Shown: positions 5,510-45,951 of the stretch, in pieces
How positions within the stretch are numbered: the first letter of the stretch is position 1
Layout: each line of letters begins with the position of its first letter
From: Candidatus Nomurabacteria bacterium GW2011_GWE2_34_25
GTDB taxonomy: Bacteria; Patescibacteriota; Minisyncoccia; Phycocordibacterales; UBA9973
Direction: 5' to 3'
Assembly (NCBI GenBank): GCA_000990325.1
Contig: LBPS01000001.1
Span: forward strand, 1 to 57,543
Length of the DNA: 57,543 nt
The notes under the pieces: model-generated
What the model was told of the DNA's origin: nothing
The model's database searches: none
Seen by the model: only the letters and a program-made list of their open reading frames with translations
Made by a program: the position numbers and the translations under genes

Positions 5510-5530
5510 CCCAAAGGCCCGGCCTTTGGG
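5510..5530. repeat. Palindrome family A, copy 1 (between secA and HUH gene 1)
   Basis: cccaaaggc ccg gcctttggg: 9-bp GC-rich stem in AT-rich DNA. The same sequence occurs at 5829 and 6251. Confidence 0.9.
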
Positions 5531-5559: not shown

Positions 5560-6300
5560 ATGAGTATTCGTAAAACAACACTTGTTGAAGGTGAATATTA
5601 TCATGTCTACAACAGGGGTAATGGTAAACAGAAAATATTTTTAGATGATGAAGACTATGAACGTTTTATAAAACTTTTGTATATTTGTAATTCAGAAAAG
5701 AAAATAAATTTTCGAGAAGAAATAGTAAATAAAAATATTGATGCTTTTGAGTTTAAAAGAGGTCAACAGATTGTATCTATGGGTGCATGGGTTCTAATGC
5801 CTAATCATTTTCATGTCTACATTACAATCCCCAAAGGCCCGGCCTTTGGGGAAAATAAGAAAGAAGAAAAAAATAGTTTAAATACAATTTCATTATTTAT
5901 AAACAAAGTATGTACTTCCTATTCAATGTATTTTAATAGAAAATACAAGAGAACCGGATCTTTGTTTGAAGGGAGATTTAAATCTGTTCACATAAAGAAT
6001 GATAATCAGGCAAAGTATTTATTTTCTTATATACACTTAAATCCTATTAAATTAATTCAATCAGACTGGAAAGATATTGGAATTAAAAATAAAAAAGAAG
6101 CATTAGATTTTCTTGATAATTATAAATGGGGGAGTTATTTAGATTATTTATATATAGAACGCAAAGAGAGTAAAATATTAAACAGAGAGAATTTTTTGAA
6201 TTATTTTGATACGAAAGAGTTATTTCAAAAGGAAATACTAGAATGGATTTCCCCAAAGGCCCGGCCTTTGGGAGATTTAATGGATGATAAAATATTTTAA
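5560..6300 (+). CDS. HUH/Y1 transposase-like protein (RAYT / IS200-like, COG1943-type), paralog 1
   Basis: HUH motif MPNHFHVY and Tyr motif YIHLNPIKL. Paralogous to ORFs 12479 and 45232. The coding sequence contains two family-A palindromes, read as PKGPAFG and PKARPLG. Confidence 0.8.
   Translation: MSIRKTTLVEGEYYHVYNRGNGKQKIFLDDEDYERFIKLLYICNSEKKINFREEIVNKNIDAFEFKRGQQIVSMGAWVLMPNHFHVYITIPKGPAFGENKKEEKNSLNTISLFINKVCTSYSMYFNRKYKRTGSLFEGRFKSVHIKNDNQAKYLFSYIHLNPIKLIQSDWKDIGIKNKKEALDFLDNYKWGSYLDYLYIERKESKILNRENFLNYFDTKELFQKEILEWISPKARPLGDLMDDKIF
5829..5851. repeat. Palindrome family A, copy 2, inside the coding sequence just after the HUH motif
   Basis: ccccaaaggcccggcctttgggg, in frame (ITIPKGPAFGENKK). 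The corresponding segment is absent from paralog 2. Confidence 0.9.
6251..6272. repeat. Palindrome family A, copy 3, forming the C-terminal tail of HUH gene 1
   Basis: ccccaaaggcccggcctttggg. Paralog 2 ends at the equivalent of EWL/EWI, whereas this ORF reads on through the palindrome. Confidence 0.9.
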
Positions 6301-11735: not shown

Positions 11736-12431
11736 TTGTTCTATATGGCAAATAAAGACACCATAAAATACATAATTGGTATAGATGAGGTTGGTAGAGG
11801 TCCTTTGGCGGGGCCCGTGGCGGTCTGTGCATTTCTTATAAAAGATAGAAAATTTCTTGATGAGCAGTTTGCCATAGGCCTTGCCTATGGCAAACTGCCG
11901 AAGCTTAAAGATTCTAAAAAGCTTTCTAAGAAGCAAAGGGAAGAGTGGTTTGAATATTTAAAAGTCGCAAAAGCCGAAGGCTTTTGCGACTACTCTGTAT
12001 CTTTTGTATCACCTGAAAATATCGATAAATTTGGAATTGCGAAATGTATACAGAAAGCGTTGAATGAATCTTTGCAGAAAGTAACTTCGCAAGATTCTTC
12101 AAATTCTTCGCGCTTTACCCTAAAGGGCTCCGACGCGGCTCAGAATTTTAAGAACCTTGCTTCGTTCGGTGTTTATCTAGACGGTGGACTTCATGCACCA
12201 GCCCAATACGTTAATCAAGAGACAATCATAAGAGGGGACGAACTTCATCCTGTTATTTCACTGGCGTCCATTGTGGCGAAAGTTACTCGTGACGCTGTGA
12301 TGACCAAATATGCAAAAGAATATCCCGAGTATGGTTTCGAGCGTCACGCAGGCTACGGTACCAAAGCTCACTACGAAGCCATCAAAACTCACGGACAGAC
12401 CCCCATCCACCGTAAAACCTTCATCCATTAA
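11736..12431 (+). CDS. rnhB: Ribonuclease HII carrying three in-frame palindromic insertions
   Basis: Motifs DEVGRGPLAGPV, DSKKLS, SIVAKVTRD, GYGT and HRKTF. 35 aa separate the GRGP and DSKKL motifs, longer than I recall for E. coli RnhB. Confidence 0.9.
   Translation: MFYMANKDTIKYIIGIDEVGRGPLAGPVAVCAFLIKDRKFLDEQFAIGLAYGKLPKLKDSKKLSKKQREEWFEYLKVAKAEGFCDYSVSFVSPENIDKFGIAKCIQKALNESLQKVTSQDSSNSSRFTLKGSDAAQNFKNLASFGVYLDGGLHAPAQYVNQETIIRGDELHPVISLASIVAKVTRDAVMTKYAKEYPEYGFERHAGYGTKAHYEAIKTHGQTPIHRKTFIH
11864..11898. repeat. Perfect 16-bp-stem palindrome inside rnhB
   Basis: gcagtttgccataggc ctt gcctatggcaaactgc, translated in frame as QFAIGLAYGKL. Confidence 0.9.
11963..11991. repeat. Perfect 13-bp-stem palindrome inside rnhB
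   Basis: agtcgcaaaagcc gaa ggcttttgcgact, translated as VAKAEGFCD. Confidence 0.9.
12089..12160. repeat. ~72-nt composite palindromic element inside rnhB (28-nt core 12111-12138)
   Basis: The core cgctttaccctaaagggctccgacgcgg is identical to 41858-41885. It is flanked by the imperfect inverted repeat gcaagattcttcaaattct / agaattttaagaaccttgc. The length of 72 nt preserves the frame. Confidence 0.8.
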
Positions 12432-12459
12432 ATGCACTAGGTCTTGCCTAGTGCATTTA
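12429..12459. repeat. Palindrome family B, copy 1 (loop tcttg); contains the rnhB stop codon
   Basis: taaatgcactagg tcttg cctagtgcattta: perfect 13-bp stem. Confidence 0.9.
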
Positions 12460-12478
12460 ATGAATATATAATAAATAT

Positions 12479-13141
12479 ATGTCTATTAGAAAAGTAAATT
12501 TTGTAGGTGGTGAATATTACCATATTTACAATCGTGGAAATAGTAAACAGAAAATTTTTCACGATAATCAAGATTATCGTCGCTTTGTAGACTTATTATA
12601 TTTGTTAAATAATAGTCAAAATCTTAATGTATTTCATTTAAATAGAAGTAGTACTTTTGACGTGTATGAAACTAAAATTGATAATAAATTAGTTTCAATT
12701 GGTGCATATTGTCTAATGCCCAATCATTTTCATCTTTTAGCAACGGAAAAAACAGAAGGAGGTATAAGTAAATTTATGCAAAAACTAACAACTGCATATG
12801 TGATGTATTACAATAAAAAACAAGAAAGAACAGGGGGTCTTTTCGAGGGTAAATTTAAGGCGGAACATGCGGGGGATGACAGATATTTAAAGTATTTATA
12901 TTCTTATGTACATCTTAACCCTATAAAACTTATAGATAAAAAATGGAAAGAAGAGGGGGTAAAAGATAGAAATGAAGCTTTAAAATATTTGGGTGAATAT
13001 AAGTATTCTAGTTACCTTGATTATATAGGAGAAAATAGAATTCAAAATAAAATTTTAGATATGGATAGTTTCCCTAAATATTTTTCAACAGACAAAGCTT
13101 TTAAAAGTGAAATTTTTGAGTGGTTAAATTATAATATCTAA
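12479..13141 (+). CDS. HUH/Y1 transposase-like protein (RAYT / IS200-like), paralog 2
   Basis: HUH motif MPNHFHLL and Tyr motif YVHLNPIKL. Flanked by family-B palindromes in inverted orientation. Confidence 0.85.
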   Translation: MSIRKVNFVGGEYYHIYNRGNSKQKIFHDNQDYRRFVDLLYLLNNSQNLNVFHLNRSSTFDVYETKIDNKLVSIGAYCLMPNHFHLLATEKTEGGISKFMQKLTTAYVMYYNKKQERTGGLFEGKFKAEHAGDDRYLKYLYSYVHLNPIKLIDKKWKEEGVKDRNEALKYLGEYKYSSYLDYIGENRIQNKILDMDSFPKYFSTDKAFKSEIFEWLNYNI

Positions 13142-13171
13142 AATGCACTAGGCAAGACCTAGTGCATTTTA
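13139..13171. repeat. Palindrome family B, copy 2 (loop caaga, inverted relative to copy 1); contains the stop codon of HUH gene 2
   Basis: taaaatgcactagg caaga cctagtgcatttta. Confidence 0.9.
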
Positions 13172-13203: not shown

Positions 13204-13779
13204 ATGGAAACAGAATATGAAGCTACTTATATAAATATTGATAAAGACGAAATAAGAGAAAGACTAAAAAATTCTGGAGCTGTTTTAGAAAGATCTGAAT
13301 TTTTACAGAAAAGAATTCCTTTCGATTTATCATACGAGAAACAAGCCTTACATACTTTTGCAAGAGTTAGAGACGAGGGAGATAAAATAACAATGAGTAT
13401 AAAATCTATAAATGGTGATAAAATTCATAATCAGAATGAGTTGTGTCTTACTGTAGATAATTTTGATCATGCCGTTAAATTTTTGGAGTTATTGGGGTGT
13501 AATCCTAAGTCATATCAAGAGAGTAAGCGTGAGCTATGGAGATTAGATGGTGTTGAAATAACAATAGATACGTGGCCATTTTTAGAACCATTTGTTGAGG
13601 TTGAGGGTAGGTCAGAAGAAGAAGTTAAAAAAGTTTCTAAAAAGATTGGTTTTGATTATTCTGAGGCATTATTTTGTGGAACTGATAAGATATATGAAAT
13701 GAAATACGGAATTTCTTGTGTAAAAGTTAATAACATTCCAAAAATAATTTTTGATATGGAAAATCCATTTATAAAATAA
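13204..13779 (+). CDS. CYTH-domain protein (class IV adenylate cyclase / triphosphate tunnel metalloenzyme-like)
   Basis: 191 aa. N-terminal acidic strand TEYEATYI, RVRDEGDKITMSIKS, and VEITIDTWPFLEPFVEVEG typical of CyaB/CYTH. Confidence 0.6.
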   Translation: METEYEATYINIDKDEIRERLKNSGAVLERSEFLQKRIPFDLSYEKQALHTFARVRDEGDKITMSIKSINGDKIHNQNELCLTVDNFDHAVKFLELLGCNPKSYQESKRELWRLDGVEITIDTWPFLEPFVEVEGRSEEEVKKVSKKIGFDYSEALFCGTDKIYEMKYGISCVKVNNIPKIIFDMENPFIK

Positions 13780-13809
13780 AATGCACTAGGCAAGACCTAG
13801 TGCATTTTA
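13777..13809. repeat. Palindrome family B, copy 3; contains the stop codon of the CYTH gene and abuts the pepN 3' end
   Basis: taaaatgcactagg caaga cctagtgcatttta, identical to copy 2. Confidence 0.9.
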
Positions 13810-13813
13810 TTTT

Positions 13814-16417
13814 TTAGTAATTTTTATTGAGCCAATTTTGGATTGATTTTTTGTCGTCTTTTAGCCAAGCTACATTTGATTCTATTCTCTCACATGCTTG
13901 CTTGAGAGTTTTCTCTGCGGCGGGGGCAGCATTTTTAGAAAAGAATTTTTGGGCGTCTTTTAAATCTTTTATTGTTGTGTGGTTACCTAGTATGAACATC
14001 ATTCTAGCTAACATAATTCCTCCTTCTCCATATTTTTTGAGTATTATATTCCAGTTATTTTTTAGAAACTGCCATGTAATATCTTGTCCAGATTTATTAT
14101 TCCAAGTTGAAGCTATTAAGAATGGTGCGAGATTATCCCTGACATCTTTTGATATTGCAAAATTAAGAGTTTTCTCTAGTAATTTGATGTTTTCAAATTG
14201 AGTCATAGCTCTGCCCAATCTCTCCTTCTCTTCGTCTAAGGTTTCTTCTTTGTATAGTTTTTCAAATGTTTTCCATTCTTTTAATCCACCGTATCTTGTC
14301 ACAGTGTTATAGATGACACCCCTCATATCAGGATCTATGGGCCGGAATATTCTATTTGAAAATATACCAATAGCCTCTTTTATTATTTCCTTATCTCCAT
14401 AAAATGCCGCCTGAGATATCAATAAATTTCTTAGAAGGGTGTATGAGCTATCTTCGTTTTTCTTCTTATCAAAGCCGATTTCTTTCGCTTTCTGGGAGAA
14501 TAATGACAGTGCATATTCTCTAAATTTATTTATATATTCTTCGTTATGAACAATATTATAAATTTTACTTATTCCATAGACTAATTCAGTCCAGACAGTG
14601 TAGCTGGTTTCATTTTTGTATGACAATGAAAATTCTAAAGCTTCGTCGGTACCAATATAGCCACTTTCGGCTAATGCGAATACATCTCTGATTACTCCCA
14701 GTCTATCCGTTACTGAAATATGATTTTCTTCTATGTTTTTCTTAATGGAGTTCAGAGTGTCTTTGTCATAACAGACTTTCATGAAGTTGCTTTCGTCCAC
14801 ATTTAATTTGTTCACAGACTTTTCTTTGAGAACAATGCCTTTATTATTAAGTAATATCTTTTTGCATTTATTTTCTGTTTTGTATAATACTGGAATTTGC
14901 CAAATTTTATTTGATTGGTTTTCTTCTTTTACTATTCTACTTGAGAAGAATTTTTCTTGTTTGAGGATGAACCCCTTATTTTTATTTTTGGTAAGAATAA
15001 TAACAGGGAAGCCCGCTTGCTTGGTCCAAGAATTCATTATTTTTCCTATTGGTTTTTTACTTATTTTTTCGAAGGCTTCCCACAGATCTATAGTTTTTGT
15101 ATTTTTGTAACTATGTTTTTTAAGATAGTATCTTAGACCATTTTTGAATTTATCTTCTCCTATATATTCACATAGCATTCTTATCATCGCTGTTCCTTTC
15201 TCATATGACACCATATCGAAAGTCTCATTTATCTCATCTGGATGATTTACCTCAACTTCTATTGCGTGCGTATTTTTTAATGAATCTATCTCGATAGCAT
15301 TTCTATATCTATTACTTGCTAAATATAAATCCCATACTTTCCATTCTGGGAAGAGTTCATTTGTGCATACTTTTTCCATATATGAAGCGAACCCCTCATT
15401 TAGCCATAAATCTGTCCACCAGTGCATTGTGACTAAATTCCCGAACCATTGATGAGCTAGTTCGTGTGCAACTGTCGTTGCAACCCATTGTTTATTTATA
15501 AGAGAAGAATGCTTCTCATCTATTAATACTGAAGATTCACGAAAAGTAATAGCTCCCCAGTTTTCCATACCAGCAGGTTCAAAATCAGGAATTGCAATTA
15601 AGTCTAAGTTTGGCATGGGGTAAGGTGTATCAAAATATTCAGCAAAGAATTCAAGTGATCTTATTGCTACATCGAGAGCAAAATGAGCTTGATGTATCTT
15701 GCCTTTAGTTGTGAATACTCTCACTTGTACTTTATTTTTTGTTTTGCCTTCTATGTATTCAAATTCACCAATTATAAATGCAAGTAGATAAGTCGACATT
15801 TTTGGTGACGGGGCAAAGGAGACTATTTTGTAGCCAGAACTATGAGGAGCGATATTGATTGGTAAAGTATTAGAAATTGCTGTTTGACCATCAGGTATTA
15901 CAAGTGACACTTCAAATATTGCTTTGTGTGCTGGTTCATCAAAGCAGGGGAATGCTCGTCTTGCATCTGTAGTTTCAAATTGTGTTGTCGCAATGTGTTT
16001 TTCTTTCCCATCTAGCATGTATTTGCTTTTATAAAAACCACGGAGATTATCGCTGATAACCCCAGAGAATACGATAGAGAGTTCAGCATTTCCCTTTAAT
16101 ACTTTATTTTTGAAATAAAAAGTAGTTGTTTCTTTTTGAATATCGTATGAAATTTTTGAAGCAAATTGTTTTATCTTTTGTATTTTTTTATTACCTGCTA
16201 CTTTCTGCTTGCTACTTATACTAACTGTTTCAATATCCAAATCTTTGCTATGAAGAGTTATTTCTTTTGCATCTTTATCAATTTTTATTTTAATTATTTC
16301 AATTCCAGAGAAAGTAGAAGACAGAATATCAGGATGAATTTTGAGTTTATAGTGAGTGGGGGATATATACTTAGGTAAGTGGACGGATATATCTTTGTTT
16401 TTTGAAAGTTTTGTCAT
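13814..16417 (-). CDS. pepN: Aminopeptidase N (M1 family)
   Basis: 867 aa. GxMEN motif (AGMENWG) and zinc site HELAHQWFGNLVTMHWWTDLWLNEGFA. Confidence 0.93.
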   Translation of the reverse strand: MTKLSKNKDISVHLPKYISPTHYKLKIHPDILSSTFSGIEIIKIKIDKDAKEITLHSKDLDIETVSISSKQKVAGNKKIQKIKQFASKISYDIQKETTTFYFKNKVLKGNAELSIVFSGVISDNLRGFYKSKYMLDGKEKHIATTQFETTDARRAFPCFDEPAHKAIFEVSLVIPDGQTAISNTLPINIAPHSSGYKIVSFAPSPKMSTYLLAFIIGEFEYIEGKTKNKVQVRVFTTKGKIHQAHFALDVAIRSLEFFAEYFDTPYPMPNLDLIAIPDFEPAGMENWGAITFRESSVLIDEKHSSLINKQWVATTVAHELAHQWFGNLVTMHWWTDLWLNEGFASYMEKVCTNELFPEWKVWDLYLASNRYRNAIEIDSLKNTHAIEVEVNHPDEINETFDMVSYEKGTAMIRMLCEYIGEDKFKNGLRYYLKKHSYKNTKTIDLWEAFEKISKKPIGKIMNSWTKQAGFPVIILTKNKNKGFILKQEKFFSSRIVKEENQSNKIWQIPVLYKTENKCKKILLNNKGIVLKEKSVNKLNVDESNFMKVCYDKDTLNSIKKNIEENHISVTDRLGVIRDVFALAESGYIGTDEALEFSLSYKNETSYTVWTELVYGISKIYNIVHNEEYINKFREYALSLFSQKAKEIGFDKKKNEDSSYTLLRNLLISQAAFYGDKEIIKEAIGIFSNRIFRPIDPDMRGVIYNTVTRYGGLKEWKTFEKLYKEETLDEEKERLGRAMTQFENIKLLEKTLNFAISKDVRDNLAPFLIASTWNNKSGQDITWQFLKNNWNIILKKYGEGGIMLARMMFILGNHTTIKDLKDAQKFFSKNAAPAAEKTLKQACERIESNVAWLKDDKKSIQNWLNKNY

Positions 16418-18228: not shown

Positions 18229-18300
18229 TCCGTGGTAGCTCAGCGGTAGAGCGATCGCCTGTTAAGCGATTGGTCGTAGGTTCGATCCCTACCCACGGAG
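18229..18300 (+). tRNA. tRNA-Asn (anticodon GTT)
   Basis: Full cloverleaf drawn by hand: acceptor TCCGTGG/CCACGGA, D stem GCTC/GAGC, anticodon stem ATCGC/GCGAT with loop CTGTTAA, T stem GTAGG/CCTAC with loop TTCGATC. No encoded CCA. Confidence 0.92.
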
Positions 18301-27877: not shown

Positions 27878-27920
27878 ATGCAAAGTGATAGTTCTTTGAT
27901 ATTAGGATTTAAGTTACATT

Positions 27921-27971
27921 GATTGAATTATTTTTGTTTCTAAAAATTTTAGAGACGAAAATAATTCAATC
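27921..27971 (+). promoter_or_regulatory. Leader hairpin 1 (terminator/attenuator-like) in the 5' UTR of the SLOG gene
   Basis: 22+ bp stem gattgaattatttttgtttcta / tagagacgaaaataattcaatc. The two non-Watson-Crick pairs are U.G on the + strand. Followed by attttttaa. The 5' arm is identical to hairpin 2. Confidence 0.65.
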
Positions 27972-28000
27972 ATTTTTTAACTTATAAAATCCAAAACAAA

Positions 28001-30684: not shown

Positions 30685-30728
30685 AAAAGAAAAACAGTTT
30701 TTTGAAATTGAATTTTGGGTTATGTTTG

Positions 30729-30773
30729 TTGAATTATTTTTGTTTCTAATATTTGGAAATGAGAATAATTCAA
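30729..30773 (+). promoter_or_regulatory. Leader hairpin 2 in the 5' UTR of ORF 30803 (paralog of hairpin 1)
   Basis: ttgaattatttttgtttc / gaaatgagaataattcaa: 18 bp with three positions kept paired only as G.U/U.G on the + strand. Same distance from promoter and ATG as hairpin 1. Confidence 0.6.
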
Positions 30774-30802
30774 TAAATCTTTAACCTTTAAACAAAAACA
30801 AG

Positions 30803-41763: not shown

Positions 41764-41836
41764 ATGTGGCTTATTTTACCACACAAATTATCTTGACGGA
41801 ATATGATTTTGTGTGGTGTGATGATATTTTTGTTTC

Positions 41837-41909
41837 GTAGTTTATTAAATTTTTTCCCGCTTTACCCTAAAGGGCTCCGACGCGGATAAAAATTTTAAAA
41901 AACTACTAC
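41837..41909. repeat. Second copy of the ~72-nt composite palindromic element (core 41858-41885), intergenic
   Basis: The core cgctttaccctaaagggctccgacgcgg is identical to 12111-12138. It is flanked by AT-rich imperfect inverted arms gtagtttattaaatttttt / aaaaattttaaaaaactac. Confidence 0.8.
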
Positions 41910-45174: not shown

Positions 45175-45203
45175 CCCAGATAGTGGCCTTGCCACTATCT
45201 GGG
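45175..45203. repeat. Palindrome family C, copy 1 (loop ctt), upstream of HUH gene 3
   Basis: cccagatagtggc ctt gccactatctggg. Confidence 0.9.
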
Positions 45204-45231: not shown

Positions 45232-45951
45232 ATGAGTACAAGAAGACAACCTTTAATAACAGGGCAGATGTATCATATTTATAACCGTGGGGTAGACAAG
45301 CGGGATATTTTTTCAGATAAAAATGATATTTATCGCTTTTTAGAAAGTATTAAAGAATTTAATAGGGAAGATAAAATAATAAGTCTTGCAAATATTCGTA
45401 AATTTAATCAGATAGAGGCCTTGCCTCTATCTGAGAGAGAAAATAAGAAGCCATTAGTAGAAATTATAGGATATTGTCTTAATCCTAATCATTTTCATTT
45501 TATATTGAGACAAGTTTCAGACAATGGTATTTCAAAATTCATGCATAAGTTACAAGGTGGATATTCTTATTATTTTAATGTAAAAAATACCCGATCAGGT
45601 TCTTTATTTCAGGGTAAATTTAAATCACAAATAATTGTTAATGAAAATTATTTTAATAAATTAATAGGTTATGTTAATAAAAATTATTTAATTCATAATA
45701 TTCCAGAAAATAAAAACCAGTTAGTTTTCTCTGGAGATTTCGAATATGAAAATAAGAAATTTGATATTATATCTAAAAAAGAAGGGGAAAGAATTTTAGA
45801 AATCTTTGGAGGTGTAAATAAGTTTAAAAAACATTGCGATGAAATAGTTTCAATAGTTAGGGAGGAAAGAGGGAAGAAATCCTTGCTTGAAGATGAGGAT
45901 TTGAATGTAATTATAGAAAGTCTTCCAGATAGTGGCAAGGCCACTATCTGA
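45232..45951 (+). CDS. HUH/Y1 transposase-like protein (RAYT / IS200-like), paralog 3
   Basis: LNPNHFHFIL (HUH). YVNKNYLIH lies at the Tyr-motif position. Shares the N-terminal YHIYNRG block with paralogs 1 and 2. Confidence 0.75.
   Translation: MSTRRQPLITGQMYHIYNRGVDKRDIFSDKNDIYRFLESIKEFNREDKIISLANIRKFNQIEALPLSERENKKPLVEIIGYCLNPNHFHFILRQVSDNGISKFMHKLQGGYSYYFNVKNTRSGSLFQGKFKSQIIVNENYFNKLIGYVNKNYLIHNIPENKNQLVFSGDFEYENKKFDIISKKEGERILEIFGGVNKFKKHCDEIVSIVREERGKKSLLEDEDLNVIIESLPDSGKATI
45408..45434. repeat. Palindrome family C, copy 2, inside the coding sequence, with compensatory stem changes
   Basis: tcagatagaggc ctt gcctctatctga. T-to-A in the 5' arm is matched by A-to-T in the 3' arm relative to copies 1 and 3. 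Read in frame as NQIEALPLSE. Confidence 0.85.
45926..45950. repeat. Palindrome family C, copy 3 (loop aag, inverted relative to copy 1), forming the C-terminus and stop of HUH gene 3
   Basis: cagatagtggc aag gccactatctg, followed by a that completes the TGA stop. Confidence 0.9.

Follow-up and report, generated by a model that had tools for sequence, protein, structure and literature searches.

We analysed 57,543 nucleotides of Candidatus Nomurabacteria bacterium GW2011_GWE2_34_25 (contig LBPS01000001.1, positions 1 to 57,543; this whole stretch is hereafter called the window), in which the reading frame of rnhB, the gene for RNase HII (11745–12431, + strand), runs through three inverted repeats: site 1 (11864–11898), site 2 (11963–11991) and site 3 (12089–12160). 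Based on the comparison with orthologous genes, two kinds of dispersed palindromic repeat have probably colonised rnhB in frame, at sites 1 and 3 in tolerant loops of the protein, and the palindrome at site 2 was made in place. An earlier note on this DNA had placed three inverted repeats in the gene and read all of them as selfish insertions. Re-measurement of the arms confirmed all three, and the reported translations, QFAIGLAYGKL, VAKAEGFCD and QDSSNSSRFTLKGSDAAQNFKNLA for sites 1, 2 and 3, respectively, were correct. The reading as selfish insertion held for sites 1 and 3, which showed length variation, empty alleles and dispersed copies, but not for site 2, where the segment measures 31 aa in all 79 orthologs.

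The rnhB product consists of 228 aa counted from ATG (the open reading frame, or ORF, in the ORF list begins at TTG 11736). Its match to Pfam PF01351 (RNase_HII) had an E-value of 9.6e-35 and 120.7 bits, against a gathering score of 25.8, and its best sequence relatives in the PDB were solved RNase HII proteins. The AlphaFold model (AF2; predicted template modelling score, pTM, 0.74) resembled the RNase HII of E. coli and T. maritima, with Foldseek template modelling (TM) scores of 0.64–0.78 against 3o3g and 7uwh. The catalytic residues D14, E15, D94 and D146 were invariant columns in an alignment of 69 sequences, and the catalytic motifs are thus intact, as had been claimed. Pfam match, fold and catalytic DEDD residues all identify the product as RNase HII.

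The proteins nearest to this RnhB were annotated as Candidatus Nomurabacteria or Paceibacterota, within the Candidate Phyla Radiation (CPR), and the exact protein was present on nine contigs. We aligned 120 proteins of 65–84% identity and took the rnhB DNA from 160 loci (named here by L-numbers), among which 79 unique CPR orthologs showed the full set of landmark motifs. Hairpins occurred in frame at the same sites in dozens of independent assemblies from different projects, and all three were found together in 11 of the 79 orthologs. Perfect hairpins with stems of at least 13 bp numbered 15 in the window against 0.075 expected from dinucleotide shuffles, and two in rnhB against 0.004 from synonymous-codon shuffles; these expectations lie so far below the observed counts that chance is excluded.

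Inserts at sites 1 and 3 of rnhB

The hairpin at site 1 is REP-like, with two 16-nt arms (11864–11879 and 11883–11898) of 100% complementarity around the loop CTT. The segment that holds it, from the second strand to DSKKLS, varied from 19 to 38 aa among the orthologs, and the excess length between DEVGRGP and DSKKLS pointed out in the earlier note was borne out by a gap of 13–14 aa in the solved RNase HII sequences. A short empty allele, FLENQKEKKLPKLK, was conserved and scattered across many lineages of the family, and is best read as the ancestral one. A perfect GC-rich hairpin (at least 9 bp) was present at site 1 in 27 of the 79 orthologs. These inserts followed a common plan, (TTT)SCC-AYAGG-YC-N-GR-CCTRT-GGS(AAA), with the tips GGTCAGACC, GGCCTTGCC or its flipped form GGCAAGGCC, AGTCSGACT, TGTCAGACA and GGACCGTCC; some orthologs carried two hairpins in tandem, and the inserts were translated in differing frames (FAIGLAYGK, NLPQVRLVAKK).

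The same superfamily of short hairpins was found outside rnhB: in frame within pepN (L001 5922, L008 4960, L023 4892, L026 5650 and L105 3916), directly 3' of rnhB, and on both sides of RAYT-like genes, the three of the window among them. The 27-mer TTTCCCACATGTC(A/T)GACATGTGGGAAA was shared, identical apart from a flipped loop base, by rnhB of L092 and pepN of L105, and the core of the window hairpin, TAGGCCTTGCCTA, was also the core of the hairpin adjoining the RAYT ortholog in L035. The tip GGCCTTGCC, as the earlier note had observed, is common to the RAYT-associated family C, whose hairpins lie at 45175, 45408 and 45926 around a Y1 transposase gene.

Pairing at site 1 was maintained through substitution. 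In nine orthologs with the window hairpin in the same register, 94.8% of the cells paired and seven of the 17 pairs had changed on both sides, a level reached by none of 500 shuffles. The loop occurred in both orientations (CTT/AAG), as did the A/T tips, and the stem extended into host codons, where GCAG pairs with CTGC of the conserved K-L-P codons. Decayed, AT-enriched descendants remained as ordinary coding sequence (RFDIKQEYKK, IFSPFPTWEK).

At site 3, we found a different element, hereafter alpha, an imperfect long hairpin of 72 nt (12089–12160) with arms at 12089–12107 and 12142–12160 (19 nt, 89% complementary, 34 nt apart), which folds as a whole into a single hairpin of about −25 kcal/mol. 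The segment varied from 16 to 58 aa among the orthologs, of which 49/79 reached −25 kcal/mol or lower, and more distant relatives had a 21-aa version without the element. The apical core of alpha (12111–12137; 27 nt, CGCTTTACCCTAAAGGGCTCCGACGCG, also written TTTACCCTAAAGGGCTCC) was identical in the copies of L003, L001 and a second copy in the window at 41.8 kb. This second copy (41836–41903) is intergenic, between divergent genes; it combines the same core with a different self-complementary stem, begins with GTAG and ends with CTAC. Among 14 copies of alpha, compensatory double changes were detected at 13 of 24 stem pairs. The mean identity across copies was 92% for the core and 71% for the arms, compared with 52% for the third codon positions in the conserved C-terminal half of rnhB, and some pairs of copies were 92–94% identical although the rnhB third positions of the same genomes were only 42–48% identical. 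An extra GC-rich hairpin (CTGCCCGACAATGCC...GGCAGGCGGGC) was nested within alpha of L087, L096, L105 and L130, giving FTLKGSLPDNASYRQAGDTDKN, an insertion inside an insertion.

In other orthologs, the exact same position of rnhB was filled by a different element, beta, with the core GGTCCTCGGATGAGGGAGGAC. Beta was also found in frame in pepN of L014 (5590–5680), L025 (6265–6345) and L026 (6415–6495), where it adds about 30 aa; the empty pepN site is 9 aa (EGKTKNKVQ) in most species, including pepN of the window (13814–16417, − strand). The element was read in two frames one base apart, as RSSDEGGRGARPSQ in RnhB and, at +1, as GGPRMREDEEPDHPK in PepN. A different hairpin insert, of 43 aa, occupied the beta site in pepN of L038.

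The pentanucleotide CTTCG stands directly 5' (12085–12089, + strand) and directly 3' (12160–12164, + strand) of alpha in rnhB, and CTTCG or a one-base variant (CTWCR) precedes, and often also follows, most copies of alpha and beta. These flanks may be either a target-site duplication or a target motif. Among the short hairpins, no flank of this type was consistent. The L014 copy of beta in pepN was flanked by a 9-bp repeat, ACCAAACTC, with nothing comparable in L025 or L026. A scan of viral contigs for the alpha core gave no match.

In the model of RnhB, a predicted local distance difference test (pLDDT) score below 50 was limited to the N-terminus and residues 41–49 (site 1), 118–138 (site 3) and 163–166, and the solved RNase HII homologs were gapped exactly at sites 1 and 3 in sequence alignments. 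Sites 1 and 3 are thus predicted to be permissive surface loops that leave the catalytic core intact. The checks proposed in the earlier note, alignment of RnhB orthologs and mapping onto the structure, agreed with it at these two sites: the inserts were present in some orthologs and absent from others, and lay in loops of low pLDDT. At site 2 they went the other way, as the length was constant and the segment belonged to a block of pLDDT about 88. Of the observations that the same note had named as contrary to insertion (extra segments conserved across distant orthologs with no palindromic DNA, or a gene interrupted in reality), none was made for sites 1 and 3; the equal length of the site 2 segment across orthologs effectively amounts to the first, palindromic DNA notwithstanding. 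Taken together, the sequence comparisons indicate that sites 1 and 3 are real lineage-variable insertions, each of a dispersed palindromic repeat family.

The palindrome at site 2

Site 2 consists of two 13-nt arms (11963–11975 and 11979–11991) with 100% complementarity and the loop GAA. The segment from DSKKLS to ID measured 31 aa in every ortholog, with a hairpin or with none; it was modelled with confidence as a helix end, a turn and a strand; and no dispersed copies of the hairpin were found in the window and the rnhB neighbourhoods. Because the length is constant, the segment is well structured and other copies are lacking, site 2 was made in place and not inserted: it is a palindrome unique to rnhB and kept in one subclade. 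The conserved G(F/L)CD at the beginning of the strand is encoded by the right arm; the left arm, reverse-complementary to the right one, encodes VAK[A/T] at a position where other orthologs have KEKE or KQKE. The hairpin was restricted to one part of the neighbour-joining tree, with a few secondary losses.

Compensatory change at site 2 was recorded at six pairs, with 13 cells showing double changes, and again none of 500 shuffles reached this level. Coupled changes included AAA/TTT to AAG/CTT, a synonymous Lys change accompanied by Phe to Leu, and GCC/GGC to ACC/GGT. In L132, GTCGCA/TGCGAC was replaced by GGAGCA/TGCTCC, by which the conserved Asp becomes Ser. The four-fold codons of the stem were near-fixed (GTC 26/27, GCA 30/30, ACC 23/24), and the four-fold codons flanking the hairpin had an entropy of 1.6–1.95 bits. 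The Cys-Asp codons were TGC GAC in the hairpin clade, compared with TGT GAT in other orthologs. The loop read GAA in most orthologs; L097 had the reverse complement, TTC. Site 2 thus displays the features of a template switch, namely equal length, replacement by a reverse complement, concerted multi-base arm changes and loop inversion.

In L086 and L089, the left arm was replaced by another palindrome, AGAGGCACGTGCCTCT (16 nt; peptide KEARASGFCDY), perfect in L086 and with one mismatch in L089, which suggests that palindromes have formed here more than once. An antisense terminator at site 2 was considered and dropped; in a terminator and promoter scan, no terminator-like call fell on the intragenic hairpins of rnhB.

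RAYT-like genes and hairpin families of the window

The gene order dnaE (−), rnhB (+), pepN (−) was kept across related loci. In the window, which has a G+C content of 33%, rnhB and pepN are separated by an inserted RAYT-like gene and an inserted CYTH gene, and insertion of the RAYT ortholog was also observed in L007 and L035. This RAYT-like gene 1 (12479–13141, + strand) encodes a Y1 (HUH) protein and is bracketed by two hairpins of family B, AAATGCACTAGG-TCTTG-CCTAGTGCATTT, with inverted loops. Hairpin B1 (12426–12462; 16-bp stem, loop TCTTG), a fourth hairpin beyond the three of the earlier note, overlaps the rnhB stop codon and lies 17 nt upstream of the gene; B2 (13139–13171, loop CAAGA) overlaps the stop codon of the RAYT-like gene itself. 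A third copy, B3, lies at 13773–13813. The B1 core also flanks the orthologous RAYT in L035, which is likewise preceded by such a hairpin, and follows rnhB in L128 and L133.

Beyond the shared core, the B copies carried copy-specific perfect stem extensions (CATT/AATG at 12423–12465, TA/TA at 13139–13171 and AAAATA/TATTTT at 13773–13813), of which that of B1 (at 12426) enters the last rnhB codons. Such extensions could reflect either stem growth after insertion or entry of the element into the middle of palindromes that were already present. In B1 and B2, the loop and right arm give a −35-like TTGCCT at 16–17 nt from TATAAT (12444–12472, + strand; 13155–13128, − strand); both are consensus matches only, and the one on the + strand lies just upstream of the start of RAYT-like gene 1.

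Two further RAYT-like genes were identified, making three within 57.5 kb, each with its own family of perfect hairpins. RAYT-like gene 2 (5560–6300, + strand) is accompanied by family A, CCCAAAGGCCCGGCCTTTGGG, at 5510, 5828–5852 (in frame inside the ORF) and 6252, and RAYT-like gene 3 (45232–45951, + strand) by family C, CAGATAGTGGCCTTGCCACTATCTG, at 45175–45203, 45408–45434 (in frame inside the ORF) and 45926–45950. Inverted loops around the genes were seen for the first and last C copies (CTT and AAG) as for B1 and B2, and A copies stand on both sides of gene 2. Two of the three RAYT-like genes matched Pfam Y1_Tnp (39.4 bits for gene 1, and 32.7 bits, against a cut-off of 23), and the motifs HFH and YxxxHxNP (Y..Y.H.NP) were visible on inspection of the sequence of a RAYT-like protein; a sequence search of the PDB with a RAYT-like protein gave no match. 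Within the 57.5-kb window, the size of the B and C hairpins and their position at gene ends fit the description of REPs.

The Rfam search of the window, at gathering and E-value thresholds, gave no match at the hairpins. The matches above the gathering score were RNase P RNA class A (2127–2442), a tRNA (18229–18300) and LOOT RNA (RF03000; 22008–22133). Elsewhere in the window, two AT-rich long inverted repeats at 27920–27972 and 30725–30777 have a common arm, TTGAATTATTTTTGTTTCTAA, and may represent a further small repeat family.

Origin and significance of the palindromes

The short hairpins may have spread on single-stranded DNA through RAYT-like HUH enzymes, and the copies that survived selection would be only those that are free of stop codons, in frame and in permissive loops. 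At site 2, an ancestral stretch of equal length would have been turned into a perfect palindrome by template switching. The covariation in all stems and the loop flips (CTT/AAG, GAA/TTC) point to hairpin-preserving template switching or selection; intra- or interstrand switching during replication, selection for pairing, or both, could have kept the stems perfect, extended them into host codons and inverted the loops. Once pairing was no longer maintained, AT-biased mutation would make the insert an ordinary loop-coding sequence.

The analogy with the Rickettsia palindromic elements (RPEs), drawn in the earlier note, is apt. RPE-1 to RPE-10 are reported as palindromic repeats in frame in ORFs (Ogata et al. 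2000, via PMC3733652 and PMC10969869). As in Rickettsia, dispersed palindromic repeats lie in frame in housekeeping ORFs of a reduced genome, are translated in permissive protein regions, and one element family is used in different genes. The likeness is one of behaviour and not of compared sequences, between Alphaproteobacteria there and the CPR here; because the host is a CPR bacterium, homology to the RPE consensus sequences is not expected. Compared with RPE-1, the short elements described here are far shorter (perfect hairpins of 21–35 bp). They differ from RPEs also in being tied to RAYT-like genes, in the recurrent occupation of the same site by different elements, and in the strong covariation and loop flips documented for them.

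The short GC-rich repeated hairpins, many copies of which abut gene 3' ends, also resemble REP/RAYT systems, or REPtrons (PMC3733652; PMC3116915; PMC5581495), as do the Y1/HUH transposase genes, each with its own hairpin family on either side in inverted orientation. Unlike REPtrons, of which one or few per genome are usual, three RAYT-like genes occur within 57 kb, and even RAYT-like ORFs contain in-frame hairpins. The canonical REP is defined by a GTAG or CGTC tetranucleotide at one stem foot (PMC3733652, PMC6006769); in the hairpins described here, it is the tip (GGYC-N-GRCC or GGCCTTGCC) together with the base (TTTSCC...GGSAAA) that is conserved.

Alpha and beta are comparable to in-frame MITEs (miniature transposable elements with inverted repeats) such as the Coxiella QMITEs (PMC5896051) and enterobacterial RU-1/2/3 (PMC2759123), and to REPINs (PMC3116915). 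Like MITEs, they are about 70–90 nt long, non-coding alone and dispersed, form one long hairpin, have open frames and are possibly flanked by 5-bp direct repeats. They differ from them in that no parent insertion sequence with matching ends was found. The classical MITE has conserved terminal inverted repeats, and alpha shows the reverse, with arms that covary and a conserved apical core. Strictly speaking, alpha is not a REPIN, since its arms (e.g. CAAGATTCTTCAAATTCTTCG) are unlike the short hairpins of families A, B and C and of site 1.

Template switching is known to create and maintain hairpins at rRNA and microRNA loci, with loop inversions and multi-base concerted arm changes as its footprints (PMC8794818). 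The equal-length replacement and concerted arm changes at site 2, the loop inversions (GAA/TTC, CTT/AAG) and the stems that extend into flanks are of this kind; what differs is the location, a housekeeping gene for a protein, in which the encoded amino acids place a further constraint on each arm. Literature searches combining CPR, Parcubacteria and Nomurabacteria with palindromes, RAYT and in-frame elements, part of them loosely worded, found no such report, in line with the novelty for CPR suggested in the earlier note. In-frame REP and RPE elements, often in replication or repair genes, have already been published for other phyla, and therefore the finding is not categorically new.

Several observations weigh against colonisation by mobile repeats, or against particular parts of it. 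The RAYT-like enzymes are candidates by association, and no transposition event was observed. The RAYT-like proteins scored 40.2, 34.2 and 48.2 bits against NCBIfam REP_Tyr_transpos (NF047646), all below its cut-off of 80 bits, and none of the hairpins of families A, B and C and of site 1 had a GTAG or CGTC tag where the stem begins or ends. For alpha and beta, the 5-bp direct-repeat flanks CTTCG would be better explained by a MITE of the DDE type than by a Y1 enzyme, and a cognate transposase was not found. The search for dispersed copies covered the window and about 0.5 Mb of rnhB neighbourhoods. Two protein searches added none: a concatenated 112-aa query of alpha and beta peptides, in frames unused by rnhB, gave eight word-sharing candidates and no scored match among 5.8 billion proteins, a search with too little power, since in a database of that size a match of about 14 aa cannot attain E ≤10; and three HMMER matches of the 30-aa alpha peptide of the window among 1.84 billion cluster representatives were rejected as spurious, being unrelated repetitive proteins (Ig-like repeats, a cadherin-like protein and a Ras protein with tandem repeats). 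The hairpins of L004, L022 and L044 occur at site 1 with no net change in length, so the 'insertion' there may sometimes be a replacement or formation in place. The covariation sample at site 2 was chosen for at least 9 of 13 pairs, which inflates the percentage of paired positions but not the double changes. Finally, function rather than selfish spread could explain why the alpha core and the stem at site 2 are strongly conserved.

This last point leads to the strongest alternative, which we consider unlikely: the palindromes would be functional nucleic-acid elements under purifying selection, such as signals for mRNA stability or processing, translation-pausing structures or single-stranded DNA sites of domesticated RAYT-like enzymes, and the protein would merely tolerate them. 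The site 2 stem, long kept with compensatory changes, frozen synonymous sites and the D-to-S change in a conserved motif, speaks for it, as do the conservation of the alpha core far above that of third codon positions, the covarying stems at three sites, the joint presence of all three hairpins in 11 orthologs, and the view that RAYTs are domesticated (PMC5581495). Functional elements fit poorly, however, with the presence and absence of sites 1 and 3 among close relatives, with the use of the same site by unrelated elements (alpha or beta; many short hairpins), with the same elements in unrelated contexts such as pepN and an intergenic spacer, and with decayed copies that persist as plain coding sequence. 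The lack of an Rfam family and of terminator- or promoter-like signals at the intragenic hairpins also argues against function. The frozen synonymous sites do not decide the matter: no stem position is synonymous in both arms, and thus concerted arm conversion together with protein-level selection on both arms could freeze them with no function of the hairpin.

It is far less probable that all three palindromes were made in place by template switching, with no mobile element and with convergence behind the similar sequences elsewhere. Site 2, the length-neutral hairpins at site 1, the GCAG/CTGC stem in host codons, the copy-specific extensions of the B hairpins, the new palindrome of L086 and L089, and the loop flips are all in keeping with it. 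Against it stand identical or nearly identical sequences of 27 to 72 nt at unrelated loci and in different genomes (the alpha core, beta, TTTCCCACATGTC(A/T)GACATGTGGGAAA and the B hairpin), the clean empty and filled alleles of pepN, and the association of hairpins with three Y1 transposase genes; the dispersed copies already largely refute it for sites 1 and 3. That the palindromes arose by chance, or are sequencing or assembly artefacts in a gene really uninterrupted or broken, has nothing for it but the general caution due to metagenome-derived sequence and can be dismissed, given the excess of hairpins over shuffled sequences, their recurrence at the same sites in independent assemblies and the exact protein on nine contigs.

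With the in-frame colonisation of sites 1 and 3 by dispersed repeats, and with site 2 made in place, the phenomenon of selfish palindromes within proteins, of which Rickettsia is the best-known case, reaches the CPR, another ultra-small-genome lineage in which little room for repeats would be expected. The natural series from empty site to perfect hairpin, compensated variants and decayed coding sequence shows DNA becoming a new loop in an essential enzyme; one and the same element is translated in a different frame in each of two genes, and a single gene, rnhB, harbours three hairpins with two separate origins. Site 2 indicates that nucleotide pairing can restrict synonymous as well as non-synonymous positions in a housekeeping ORF, a constraint that bears on codon-based evolutionary models and on how genes of CPR genomes are predicted and aligned. 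With three RAYT-like genes in the same window, the interplay of HUH enzymes and hairpin repeats outside Proteobacteria also becomes open to testing.

A bolder and rather improbable reading is that a hairpin-preserving force acts inside essential protein genes of Paceibacteria, through either selection for nucleic-acid function or very frequent arm-to-arm conversion. Such a force would suffice to hold synonymous sites frozen, to bring about concerted amino-acid changes within conserved motifs (V/D to G/S at site 2) and to maintain 92% identity in a 27-nt element core between species whose synonymous sites are saturated. In the case of selection, rnhB would hold a conserved structured element inside its coding sequence, and the hairpins would be genome-wide cis-elements for RAYT-like (domesticated HUH) enzymes or another host process.

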